A stretch of DNA of 64,000 nucleotides from Tubulanus polymorphus (lineage: Eukaryota; Animalia; Nemertea), in assembly GCF_964204645.1 (NCBI RefSeq), contig NC_134025.1:23168299-23232298 (forward strand). The letters run 5' to 3'. Below, piece by piece: positions 15,640 through 61,872 of the stretch. The position numbers and the translations under genes were made by a program. The notes under the pieces were generated by a model that worked only from the letters and a program-made list of their open reading frames with translations, was not told the DNA's origin and made no database searches. Position 1 is the first letter of the stretch, and every line of letters begins with the position of its first letter.

Positions 15640-18600
15640 TCACATGTTTAGCGCATCTTCTGCCATTGCTCGAATATCGGTAAACGCTTTGAGCAAGAGT
15701 TGAGCAAATCTTTTCGAGTCCTGTAACGGATATAATCACATAAACCAAATTACGACAGTGAGAATGATACATCACTATCAACAGTTTTTCTCTCATTCTA
15801 AAGTTCTTACTTTGTTCTCTTGGGAAGCGTTCGATACAACGTGGATGTATATGATGCCCTCGCCAGCCATAGTATAGGAAACTGCGTAATTCGTTCGACA
15901 TATCTAATAACAGAGAGCCTATCGCATCGTAGTCGATAATTTCGATCACATCGCATTTTATAGACAGACGTAGCAGTTATTAGAATCTGCGAGGTTACGA
16001 TCCGCTAATACATACCGCCCCAACACTGCCTCCAGGAGATCCAAGTTCTGGGTATTCCTTGAGACGCATCAAACCAGTCTGATCACCGGACGACTGGACC
16101 AATCATAGATATCGTCGATTTAAAACAGATTGTACATTATCACAAGACAAAAGGTCATATCATGCAAATGTGACGATATTATCTACAAACTGCATGAATC
16201 AACTGTCACAAGTTAAAACCTCGACTAGTTGTACGAACCATCGAGTAACTTTTTTCGTGCGTATTTTTGAGAATGCTCTTTATGTATACATGTACTAACT
16301 AAATCAACCCTGATTCTAATATTACCTGAGTTGTTATCAAAAGCTCTTCGTCGTGGTTGATTAATTCAAAAAATGAAGATTTAGCTTTGACATCTTCAGC
16401 AGCACATCCAAGAGCCATGATATGTCGAGGATAGTTTCGACCTATCATCGATTTTCGAGAAATATACTGATGATGATCACACGCCTTTTTCAAAAGTGCA
16501 AATCTTTCTTCATTCTCCATAAAAGCAGAAAAGAATATCTCTCAAGATTTATTTGACTCGATTTATTGATGAGATATAAGTGATAGTTCTCTTTTACCGA
16601 TACTGTTTTATCTTCCATGGCGTTGACAAATGCTTTAGTCTCTGTATTAGACGAATGGACATTAGAAGTTCGACCATAACGAAAAAGTCGAGTCATTGTC
16701 GGTTGAAATGTAACATGAATCTTTCCATTTTCCTAAAATACCGACATTTATTTTAAGATATCGTCATTATCGTCATCATGAGACAAAATACATGTATCTA
16801 ATATTTGACTCTGGGATTTGTTTTATATCTTATTCCTTTCAACCCCAGGCCCGCAGTTGTTCCTGAACACAAAAAGAATTTGTGTTTGGAAATTAAGTTG
16901 GGATTGAAAGGGCTATCGCAGATATCGATCACTCAGCAAGAATAGTTTCTCGAAGCTAGCACGCGTCACTTAGGATCAAGCCCTAAGTCGCCCTCCTACT
17001 ACAGGATCCAAAAATACCGTCCCTCAACTTAAACCCTGCATGCATAAATTATATTTACCCGGAAGTAGGCCAGATTAATTGCCATCTGAGTGTAAGCATC
17101 CGGACTGAGGTTGATCGACTTAATGAATCCTTTGCCGTATGACATTTGTGCGAAGCAATATAGATCAATGTCAGCAATGACTTTAGTAACTTCGATATAA
17201 TTCTTTTCAATTTCCTCGATACACTAAAACGATGAGGTGATGAAATTAACGTATTTTGTACAAAGCCATGTGGAGGTAACACAATATTTGCGTATTAACC
17301 TCTTCTGGAATATCCCAGACTAGTTTTGGTGGTGGCGGTGGGTTGATTTCTGGTTCTCCGCGACAGTGGCCATCATCACGATACCTGTGATCAGCAATAC
17401 AAAAAAGACCATCGTGAAAGTGTACTTAGGTATAGCATATTTCCACATTGATACGTTATAAGAATTTCATACCCGAACTCATAAACGTCTTTGGAATACA
17501 TGTATTCAAAAACCTGAGAAGATACACTTCCATCGCCCCTGTAAGAAGAAAGCTTATCTCATCGTCGTACCAAAACCAATCATTGATACATTATACCAAA
17601 AACTTGTACCAGATGTGTGAATGTGGATGATCAATGTAAATGACCAGCACCTTGTTTTAAATACAGGGAAGTTCAAACTTACCAACTATGTTCGCCAGTA
17701 AACCCTTGCTGAAAACGAAAGTGTTCATTTAATGATTTTCACGAAAAAGTAGACAAATTTGTATTTGTCAATACCAATTCACCTTTCCATCTTTTGATAT
17801 TATGATAGTGTATGATTTATCATACCATCGATCGTGACCATTTCCATGGAGCAAGTCTTTTCCTCTTTGTGTCATGATATCAAAGTTTGGATTATTCTGT
17901 AAAATAGTAACGTATAAATGAAGTTGACTTCACTATAGATTCGTACAACGAGCGATTTCAATTTAATAAATATCATTTCCTAAGACATAACGTACCAGAT
18001 CAATGTCTTCGTATTCCCTGTCATCAAGTACAACTTCTGTAGCAGCCTATAAGATATGCAAATAATACTTTTAACCGATATATGAGGGCAACAATGTCTG
18101 TACGCATTTTCATACATTTCTATCATTTTAACTTACGAATCATAGTTGGCTAAGAAAAATAAATCAGAACCGTACCCTCTCTATCAGGTCTAGTGACGTT
18201 TTATTGAGACCTTTTGAAAAATACTTTTCCCTCACTTCAGCCCATGTATCCCGATTGCCGGCCGTTAGGGAAGCTAAAAGTTCTTCCCCTGGAGATGGAG
18301 GTTCGTCGTTATCCAGAATACTTTGAAATGCACTTAGACAAAATAGAAATACAAAATCAAACAAATGAATTACATGCATTAATCATTGAAAGTATTGGAA
18401 ACTCACATTTCTAATTCACAAGGCAGCAAAAATCTATTCTCGTATAGAAAATCCAACTTAAAATAACGACCTTTATGATATACAACGATGTGCTGTGAAT
18501 CCACGATCAAACATTCGTCTAAACGGAAACAGAAATTTTTTAGAAAAATATAGAAGACAAAAATATGGATCCAGACGAAATGTTGGAATTGTTGGATCAA

Positions 18601-59800: not shown

Positions 59801-61872
59801 AATACTTAATACTAATCAAGACAGGGCGAGGGTACGACACGGCAAGTCATACCCACCCTCTGATGATTTTAGTACGAAAGCAATTACGGTATTTGTTGCA
59901 CATGTAATTGTGGTGGTTGATGCTATGTTTTTCATTTAGGGCCTCGCATATGAACCGAAACAAATAAGATACCCAAACAGGGAGCTGTGGCAATCGCGGG
60001 GATGCATCATATGACTATATTCACTAAGTATTTGCAGCGATTACAAGCAACTTTTTGTCACCGCGTCCATAAAACATCAAACATGTCAGATATTTGGCGA
60101 ATGCAAAATACACAATAATCACACGCAATAATCACCGAAAACTACGCTGCGCACTTTGCGTCCGCATTATTCTCAAGGGTAAATATTGACTGATTTCAGC
60201 TCAACCTGGATCCGGATCAACATAAACCATGTTTACATGTCGTATAGGGAAATGACATCAAGAAACCGGATAACACTGATACGATAAAATCATAGACAAA
60301 GTACATGTGATCTGATTATCCATAAGACAGAAAGGTCAAATTTCTGGTAGAGCAATTATGATTTACTCATTGAAACAGTATTTCATGATTTGAATTGCAC
60401 GCAAATACTAAGGGCAAATTAAGTTGGTCATAAGACACACAACACCATAACTTACTAAAACACTTTGACCCTCTAATGACTGTTGGAATTTGGACTTCAG
60501 CCATTTATTATGTCTACTGAAACCGAACAGTCACAAATAGGCTAATTCACCTTAATTGTCTAAGAAAAAATCATGAACTTCATACACTTAGACTAACCAC
60601 AACAATGTTTTTGCATATAAGCCTCACCAGGCCATCCCATGATGGTCTGTTTGCTGTAACCCGACCGACCCAACTTCAAAGGTACCGAGGGAAAACTTTT
60701 TGGGGGATTCATTGAAATGAATTTAATTTTTGATATTTTTTCCACACAAAAAAGGTGATAAATTTGTTTTTTGCCCTAAATTTTTGCAAAAAAATATTTC
60801 TACCTACCTACACCAACTCATCCTGAAAACTTGACTCGGGTGTTACGGCAAACAGATGATTATTTTGGGATGGCCCCAGTATAAAACGGCACATGGTTTC
60901 GTCTTATGAGGCATCAAAAAATGTTTAATTCATCAAATATATTGCAGAAATTCATGCATTCAGCTATTTACCTATGCCGCCACCTTAAAATACTATAGTA
61001 CGCTATAGGTCTACTATGCGCGGTTCTGTCAATTCATAACGTTATTTGCTTAATCCCGATAATATCCACAAATGTATAAAAAAACTGTCCATAGCAGGTG
61101 TTTAAAACACGCAAAACATTTCGTATACGAAAAATGTGCAAAATGAAACCATTTCAACAAACGAATAAAACAAACTAGATAATATTTTCTGGGAGCAAAT
61201 ATTACATGAAATATGAGCCGAATCTGGGATGAATTTTATCAAATAAATCGAACAGGCTGAATTTAAGATCATAAGATTGGTAAACAGCTTAGTAAATGCT
61301 GATCGAAAATCATAGCAAAAGTAATATCTGCATATAATGCAGTAATTGAATAGGTCACTTCTCTTCTTAGGGAAACCATTCAATCTCCCATTCTGACAAG
61401 CAAGTTCTACCAATAATGCATTAAAGAAACTCAAGTCTTTAATCGAACAAGATTTCTGAGTAAGACTTGCAAACCTGGATCCAATTCCACACTTGTGAAA
61501 TGGATTAAACTTCATTTTCAATGTTTTAACTCTACTAGAGTCAAATTTAACACAGAGCAGTGGAACTCAGTCTACGTAACATGTAAAATATATACGAGTG
61601 GATGGAATCTGCCCTAAATTGCAAATCTAGCCATTACACACTAATTACCAACTCATTATTCATTCAAAAGCACCCGAAAATTGCGCAGATAGCTGGAAAC
61701 AAAAAATCTCCCTAAATCGATGCCTTACCTTGAATCGTAAGAATTTGATTTTGTTCGCGCGGACAAAACTTTCCCAAACGGCGCGGAAAGCTTCGTGATT
61801 GACGTTGACGTCGACTCCGCCGTCCGGAGAAACGGTGAACGAGAACGCAACGGCAGAATGCGCTTCTGCCAT
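47840..61872 (-). CDS. CPT1: Carnitine O-palmitoyltransferase 1, canonical malonyl-CoA-sensitive type, 21 coding exons
   Basis: Exon 1 61872-61729 [14 protein letters not shown]...[92 protein letters not shown]; micro-exon 50482-50457 [79 protein letters not shown] at 47840. A splice acceptor 8 nt upstream of the ATG implies an upstream non-coding exon. Confidence 0.96.
49288..49435. mobile_element. Degenerate MITE-like element related to 52875-53056
   Basis: Begins TAAGCC, ends GGCTTTA; shares GAAACATGTTTC palindromic cores and CAGGGAAA / TTTCCTGTG motifs with the 52.9 kb element. Confidence 0.4.
49750..49812 (-). mobile_element. Possible tRNA-derived SINE head fragment
   Basis: Minus strand reads GGTTAGAGCATTCGACTTTGGGATGCCAGATCATGGGTTCAAAACC: A-box-like and B-box-like (GGTTCRA) motifs, no complete cloverleaf. 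Confidence 0.35.
52875..53056. mobile_element. MITE-like inverted-repeat element (PIF/Harbinger-like TAA/TTA flanks)
   Basis: AAGCCCAACATACATGACGCAGGGAAACAG pairs imperfectly with CTGTTTCCATGCGCTGTGTGCATTGAGCTT; internal palindrome CAGAAACATGTTTCTG. Confidence 0.55.
55022..55352. mobile_element. Non-autonomous DNA transposon with 6-bp TSD TAATAT
   Basis: TIR CGTGGTTCCCACAG / CTGTGGGAACCATG; TAATAT at 55016-55021 and 55353-55358; internal TTTCCCAA/TTCCCTG subterminal repeats. Confidence 0.8.
58419..58709. mobile_element. piggyBac-like non-autonomous element
   Basis: TTAA|CCCTTTCAGTGC ... GCACGGAAAGGG|TTAA: TTAA target duplication and CCC...GGG termini; internal CCGCGCTGCGGTGTA repeats. Confidence 0.8.
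59012..59480. mobile_element. Non-autonomous DNA transposon with 14-bp perfect TIR and 6-bp TSD ATTAAC
   Basis: CAGAGTTGCCACTT ... AAGTGGCAACTCTG; ATTAAC at 59006-59011 and 59481-59486; AAAATCCGGAA subterminal repeats. Confidence 0.85.

Follow-up and report, generated by a model that had tools for sequence, protein, structure and literature searches.

Five remodelled copies of CPT1 beside their parent gene in the ribbon worm Tubulanus polymorphus

Why does a CPT1 gene of the palaeonemertean ribbon worm Tubulanus polymorphus (Nemertea) stand next to five compact relatives, and do these still acylate carnitine? The question is raised by a stretch of 64,000 nucleotides of contig NC_134025.1 (assembly GCF_964204645.1, positions 23,168,299 to 23,232,298), hereafter the window, which holds six minus-strand genes: a parental CPT1 (A) and five copies (B–F, Table 1). 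The copies keep the catalytic and CoA-binding residues of the choline/carnitine acyltransferase family, and show a concentration of changes at positions that CPT1-like proteins conserve on the acceptor side. Taken together, the comparisons lean, by a little, toward membrane-anchored acyltransferases that would use an acceptor other than carnitine. No study of this locus is among the literature matches listed.

The frames of A–F are gene models built from the DNA with a spliced-alignment script, each of 21 coding exons; a full annotated protein is matched for A only, and the identity of the model with that protein validates the procedure. Two RefSeq proteins of the species match exons of the window letter for letter. 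All introns are of the GT–AG type (20/20 per gene, 100/100 in B–F), the copies repeat the intron phases of A in 20/20 cases, and 18/20 introns fall into the same alignment column as in A, the remaining two within 1–3 columns. Frames of the copies are open over 753–761 amino acids (aa), with zero internal stops or frameshifts; C, D, E, and F have identical exon lengths and span 4,577–4,710 base pairs (bp). An earlier, sequence-only reading of this DNA had described six same-strand genes with common intron positions, one textbook CPT1 of 14 kb, and five compact copies (4,577–5,722 bp in our models) free of stops and frameshifts, and this description holds throughout. Protein identity is 45–47% between A and the copies, 49% between B and C–F, and 74–89% among C–F. 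RefSeq gives A two full isoforms; its present models of the locus are wrong or incomplete, as XP_074659908.1, a partial model of B, begins in exon 8 and skips exon 11, and XP_074659710.1 is a chimera in which the end of D is wrongly joined to part of E, with exon 12 skipped. No protein model of C or F was returned by a word-index protein search.

Residues are numbered as in A, whose H473 and G709/G710 bear the same numbers in human CPT1A, and were mapped to mouse CrAT via a PDB alignment; the CrAT M564 position falls on G710 through the M564G chain. The signatures EHSW(A/G)D and GKGF(I/M)K..SPD are found in all copies. Residues H473, D477, K556, K560, D567, W237, Y242, R601, T602, H656, Q688, G709, G710, G713, and Y720 are kept in 5/5 copies, R655 and F712 in 4/5, and S687 is present as Ser or Thr; the catalytic His motif and the CoA site, claimed earlier to persist, are thus retained in H473/D477 and K556/K560/D567. 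For CrAT, the available part of one source gives roles for H343, K419, K423, and D430, where the histidine lies between the tunnels for CoA and acceptor and serves as general base, and the 3'-phosphate is bound by K419/K423 (PMC11852590). For the two partial RefSeq models named above, not for full spliced copies, Pfam Carn_acyltransf (PF00755) is matched at E 1e-100; in structure comparisons, likewise made with a partial model, the fold aligns with CrAT 2h3w (Z 23.7, root-mean-square deviation 3.0, 387 aligned residues) and with a CPT1 cluster (TM score 0.94). For partial B, the AlphaFold model (mean pLDDT 77, pTM 0.77) falls below 50 at the remodelled motif 273–287 and, as the domain's N-terminal part and exon 11 are absent from it, gives no information about the pocket. 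Exon 6, searched against the PDB, yielded no match.

On the acceptor side, changes common to all five copies are S253 (to Arg or Lys), A591P, E603S, T604 (Val or Asn), R606H, G652, D654 (Cys or Pro), S685 (Val or Ile), G711, and P714; segment 660–684 is rewritten, and exon 6 carries a one-residue insertion. The carnitine-side motifs TYE, GRTET.R, DRHL, STS, and GGGFGPV are not retained intact. At the CrAT E453 site, E590 is kept in B and C, and is Gln in D–F. The proposed remodelling of acceptor motifs therefore stands as to its extent, with 10–12 of 25 conserved positions changed, and needs correction as to its evenness: Y589 and R655 are lost in B, position 589 is Ile in C, F is changed at both 589 and 712, and D and E keep most of their contacts.

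Conservation was assessed on a panel of 149 CPT1-like representatives with less than 50% mutual identity, in which 76 positions are at least 90% conserved, 25 of them acceptor-side and 51 other. Against the 10–12 acceptor-side changes, each copy shows only 2–7 changes at the 51 other positions (Fisher p 0.0001–0.007). Among the 103 of 149 representatives with near-full cover, the median is 0/25 acceptor-side changes and the maximum 7, while the 81 representatives as distant from A as the copies show at most 6/25; since the panel is defined by the representatives, their low counts arise partly by construction, the acceptor-versus-rest contrast inside the copies being unaffected. The concentration of changes in the copies thus lies beyond that of any of the 103 diverse relatives. 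Relatives across eukaryotes retain E603 (as Glu or Asp) in 142/145 cases, R606 in 140/145, D654 in 138/143, and S685 in 127/137; Ser at position 603 is seen in 0/145 and Arg or Lys at position 253 in 0/115. In an earlier panel (54 full-length of 128 proteins) the copies change 34–39% of invariant positions, a figure inflated by the use of exon 18 to find that panel, in which the conservation of this exon is overstated. Tandem expansions of enzymes are common; unusual here is that loss is targeted at motifs which survive even in CPT1-like proteins with identities as low as about 33%.

The N-terminus is also affected. Exon 1 of A encodes 48 aa with the Pfam domain CPT_N (PF16484, E 1e-18), A matching PF00755 as well. 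According to the available text of PMC10076611, malonyl-CoA inhibition of CPT1 is governed by the N-terminal domain. No CPT_N match is seen in the first exons of the copies (0/5 at E up to 10), in agreement with the suggested loss of the regulatory domain, and the copies are probably free of CPT1-type malonyl-CoA control. They had also been credited with a shared replaced N-terminus; this is correct for C–F, where a common basic exon of 25 aa (75 nt) takes the place of A exon 1, and incorrect for B, where a different first exon (26 aa) is predicted, less certain than that of C–F. Both transmembrane segments persist, as had been claimed, judging from the alignment and from Kyte–Doolittle peaks of 1.64–1.85 for the first segment and, for the second, 1.81–2.33 in C–F and a weaker 1.47 in B.

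In a tree of 28 proteins (LG+C20+F+G4), B–F form one clade (support 100/100) that is sister to A (100/99), and A–F together are sister to Lineus CPT1 (98/97). The approximately unbiased (AU) test, on 10 of the 28 proteins, rejects a grouping of A with Lineus (p = 0.0026), an alternative named after the first tree had been seen. The copies thus descend from the neighbouring CPT1 after the split from Lineus, in line with the lineage-specific origin proposed before. The branch of A measures 0.11, and the copies have a stem of 0.77 plus 0.59–0.78, about 1.4–1.55 from the same node; relative-rate counts give 30–42 unique changes for A versus 205–245 for the copies, which evolved about 6–8 times faster. 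A nearly static parent and a fast copy lineage are what a shift of function usually leaves behind. No orthologue of the copies outside this genome was found in word-index searches, in which other Tubulanus species may be unsampled, nor was one present among the best 150 of 3,752 HMMER matches of partial B against 1.84 billion representatives, where the top non-self matches (42–44% identity) are generic CPT1.

Within the cluster, D and E resemble F more than C across almost all exons and introns as far as intron 17, with a clear exception at intron 16; from exon 18 onward, the 3' flank included, they resemble C. With a breakpoint near the start of exon 18, picked after inspection, C and D differ at 326/1821 positions before it versus 32/441 after it, and D and F at 150/1821 versus 87/441. 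The F-type 5' part and C-type 3' part of D and E, along with the order C–D–E–F, are the outcome expected of unequal crossover between tandem C and F. Read from the sequence, a single CPT1 duplication would have been followed by fast remodelling and a split into B and the ancestor of C and F; unequal crossover would then have produced an F-5'/C-3' gene, later duplicated into D and E.

The ratio of nonsynonymous to synonymous divergence (dN/dS) is 0.33–0.42 in 6/6 pairs among C–F (NG86; dN 0.06–0.16, dS 0.13–0.47, bootstrap upper limits at most 0.59), far from 1, and YN00 and maximum likelihood concur (about 0.31–0.45); in pairs with A or B, dS is saturated. Per C–F pair, introns hold 46–115 non-triplet gaps and coding sequences zero, and changes of splice dinucleotides number 0/80, versus 12–24 expected. 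These values support purifying selection on C–F, not decay, and agree with the assertion that the genes are intact. Introns differ by 15–30% between copies, more than duplicated haplotypes would. With 0 differences, contigs from a single DNA run span 39132–44595 and 36597–39055 (most of B and the B–C boundary); they may come from the sample used for the assembly itself, and E and F lie outside their coverage. For 33000–42999, three sequencing runs were found, with no RNA run among those listed; their contigs hold no exon–exon joints and behave as DNA, giving evidence neither way on expression.

If the copies do use another acceptor, they would still bind acyl-CoA and pass the acyl group to an acceptor hydroxyl, which His473 would deprotonate as in all family members, and the gate left open by Gly710 (at the CrAT Met564 position) would continue to let through acyl chains of medium or long length. 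Loss of the acidic E603 and D654 and gain of Arg or Lys at 253 would render the pocket more positive. In C–F this fits a hydroxy compound, anionic or zwitterionic, that the retained clamp of T602 and R655 would hold. B, devoid of Y589 and R655, has lost the carboxylate clamp and would suit an acceptor that bears no carboxylate, e.g., a choline- or amino-alcohol-like one. Tentatively, and with the odds rather against the scenario as a whole, the clade might have left beta-oxidation for specialised metabolism, C–F acylating an anionic or betaine-type hydroxy compound through the Arg/Lys253 pocket and B a choline-like one, to yield acyl esters that are secreted to serve mucus, tube, or defence; the recombination at exon 18 would mix the specificities. 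A role in defence or secretion is guesswork; the available part of a paper on muricid choline esters names no such enzyme (PMC4962025).

Several observations weigh against a switch of acceptor. The acceptor-side segments were taken from a contact map of CrAT, and were fixed after the alignment had been seen. Sites constant within the copies and different from the relatives show no enrichment among positions that had been invariant (8/36 versus 29/85, p = 0.28). The change A591P, once considered to exclude carnitine, was dropped, as Pro591 occurs in 8/145 relatives, most of them with motifs otherwise intact. D and E keep Y589, T602, R655, W237, Y242, and F712, which we take to be direct carnitine contacts, and this leaves carnitine or a close analogue as a possible acceptor. 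A dN/dS near 0.35–0.4 fits relaxed constraint equally well, and the RefSeq models of the copies, partial or chimeric as they are, hint at low or restricted expression. Finally, the available part of a review of nemertean toxins offers no candidate acylated metabolite (0 matches to 'acyl' or 'ester'; PMC6410017).

It is conceivable, if rather unlikely, that the copies are still carnitine acyltransferases, freed of malonyl-CoA control and adjusted in acyl-chain preference, in kinetics, or in location to meet the special lipid demand of some tissue or life stage. Such enzymes would be expected to retain W237, Y242, T602, H473, D477, and G710, as all five copies do, R655 and F712, as four do, and S687, present as Ser or Thr; the loss of CPT_N also favours them, as does M593S in B, a change that reportedly abolishes malonyl-CoA sensitivity in rat CPT1A. 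The change at position 253 and the insertion in exon 6 could then act on the acyl side, not on the acceptor. What such enzymes leave unexplained is the loss in every copy of E603, R606, D654, and S685, all kept by CPT1-like proteins across eukaryotes; CPT1A mutants at E603 and R606 are reported to be inactive.

An altered small-molecule site beside a kept CoA site and histidine would also suit weak or non-catalytic acyl-CoA or lipid sensors, or enzymes acting on proteins, like the CPT1C depalmitoylase or the lysine succinyltransferase activity of CPT1A, and Arg or Lys at 253 could bind a carboxylated acyl group. We regard this as doubtful, given that G710 and Ser/Thr687, presumably the oxyanion site, are kept. 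The available text on CPT1A G710E, which loses CPT activity and keeps succinyltransferase activity, counts for a protein-directed role (PMC10076611). The proposed CPT1C nucleophile Ser252, aligned with S253 and modelled as pointing into the pocket in the part of the source available (PMC6092487), counts against it, this position being Arg or Lys in 5/5 copies.

Most improbable of all are redundant, relaxed, mostly silent genes heading to decay, or partly an assembly artefact: the incomplete RefSeq models and the inflated 34–39% of changed positions speak for decay, but dN/dS is well under 1, frameshifts are absent, splice sites are intact, and B and C–F hold the same catalytic core at saturated dS, while intron differences too many for haplotypes and the zero-difference contigs, even if possibly from the assembly's own sample, argue against an artefact.

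Table 1. Features of the window (position 1 is its first letter)
Feature	Position	Strand	Description
Gene A, parental CPT1	47840–61872	-	14,033 bp, 772 aa, 21 coding exons; identical to RefSeq XP_074662825.1
A exon 8a	54816–54900	-	85 nt; mutually exclusive with exon 8b
A exon 8b	54650–54734	-	85 nt; peptide found in RefSeq isoform X2 XP_074662826.1
Copy B	38001–43722	-	5,722 bp, 761 aa; earliest-branching; Y589Q, M593S, R655Q
B first exon, predicted	43645–43722	-	78 nt
Copy C	32415–37124	-	753 aa; first coding exon 37124–37050
Copy D	26865–31446	-	753 aa; first coding exon 31446–31372; resembles F up to intron 17 and C from exon 18 on
Copy E	21334–25910	-	753 aa; first coding exon 25910–25836; sister of D, same mosaic
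Copy F	15640–20337	-	753 aa; first coding exon 20337–20263; Y589F, F712V
Upstream element of C	37531–37571	-	wider spacing
Upstream element of D	31881–31908	-	
Upstream element of E	26214–26243	-	
Upstream element of F	20779–20808	-	E-box-like CACCTG and an ACGTG core
Left neighbour	2168–4636	+	long low-complexity exon, zinc-finger start at its end; no Pfam match; presumably ARID2-like
Left neighbour	about 12165–14509	-	Rabin8/RAB3IP-like gene (PF25555, E 3e-11)
(TA)n microsatellite	26338–26503		upstream of E
High-copy repeat	about 38900–39160		depth spike; B intron 17
High-copy repeat	about 44590–44750		depth spike; between A and B

The conserved upstream element lies about 440 bp (in E, 330) before the start codon of each of C–F and is followed by a conserved GT donor; it is absent ahead of B. 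Its pattern, derived from the alignment itself, gives 3 matches versus 0.00 expected in 100 shuffles. The element is likely a promoter, and the stretch after it likely a non-coding first exon with an out-of-frame ATG. Alternative use of exons 8a and 8b separates RefSeq isoforms X1 and X2 of the parent, and the copies hold a single exon 8. Besides exon 8b, no additional CPT1 fragment was found in the window; a 10-aa CPT1 match at 42140–42111 overlaps the donor of B exon 7 and was taken as chance. In CPT1 of Lineus longissimus, the difference between X1 and X2 sits instead in the exon right after the catalytic His, a pattern that resembles the alternative exon of Drosophila CPT1.

Among known systems, the closest is CPT1 itself (EC 2.3.1.21; PF00755 plus PF16484), here A, the direct ancestor of the copies, which share its 20 intron phases. 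The copies resemble it in the two transmembrane segments, H473/D477, K556/K560/D567, and G709/G710, and differ from it in the absence of CPT_N, the acceptor-side changes, Arg or Lys for S253, and the new segment 660–684. ChAT, the known acceptor switch within the family, has the same fold (Z about 23). C–F share N604 with its GRVDN motif, and B replaces R655 as ChAT does (Gln in B, Asn in ChAT); however, ChAT has V602 and DNHL (Asn at 655) and keeps Asp at 603 and 654, whereas in the copies T602 persists and both acids are gone. Also unlike ChAT, they have membrane anchors, Gly at the acyl gate, and CPT1 descent. We take the CrAT positions T465 and R518, Val and Asn in ChAT, to set choline specificity; a ChAT-type conversion was rejected, as T602 is kept in 5/5 copies and R655 in 4/5.

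To our knowledge, animal members of the family have two small-molecule acceptors, carnitine and choline. If the copies do prove to use a non-carnitine acceptor, the family would have switched acceptors twice in animals, ChAT being the first case. Five enzymes whose acceptor half has been rewritten next to an intact CoA half, adjacent to an unchanged parent, would make a natural test of acceptor specificity, would point to new acylated metabolites in a phylum that is chemically defended and little studied, and could provide biocatalysts for long-chain O-acylation. If the copies are merely deregulated CPTs, the significance is modest.

Mammalian neuronal CPT1C is likewise a CPT1 duplicate with membrane anchors kept and function shifted, as the available part of PMC6092487 has it; the copies differ in their independent origin and in Arg or Lys at its proposed nucleophile, and a CPT1C-type thioesterase triad (Ser252-His470-Asp474) was rejected, S253 being replaced in 5/5. 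CPT1-like proteins of Steinernema (KAK0408224.1), Allacma (CAG7833727.1), and Dimorphilus (CAD5120618.1) show milder motif drift, with Pro591 and, in Dimorphilus, H606, and are possibly independent derived copies; unlike B–F they keep GRT[ED]T, DRHL, and STSQ, and the combination of changes seen in the copies occurs in 0/149 representatives. Extra CPT1-like genes, cpt-3 to cpt-6, are also present in C. elegans. Without CPT_N and with the carnitine-side motifs broken, the five copies of T. polymorphus belong to PF00755 on the strength of their fold and catalytic residues, and to CPT1 on that of their descent.

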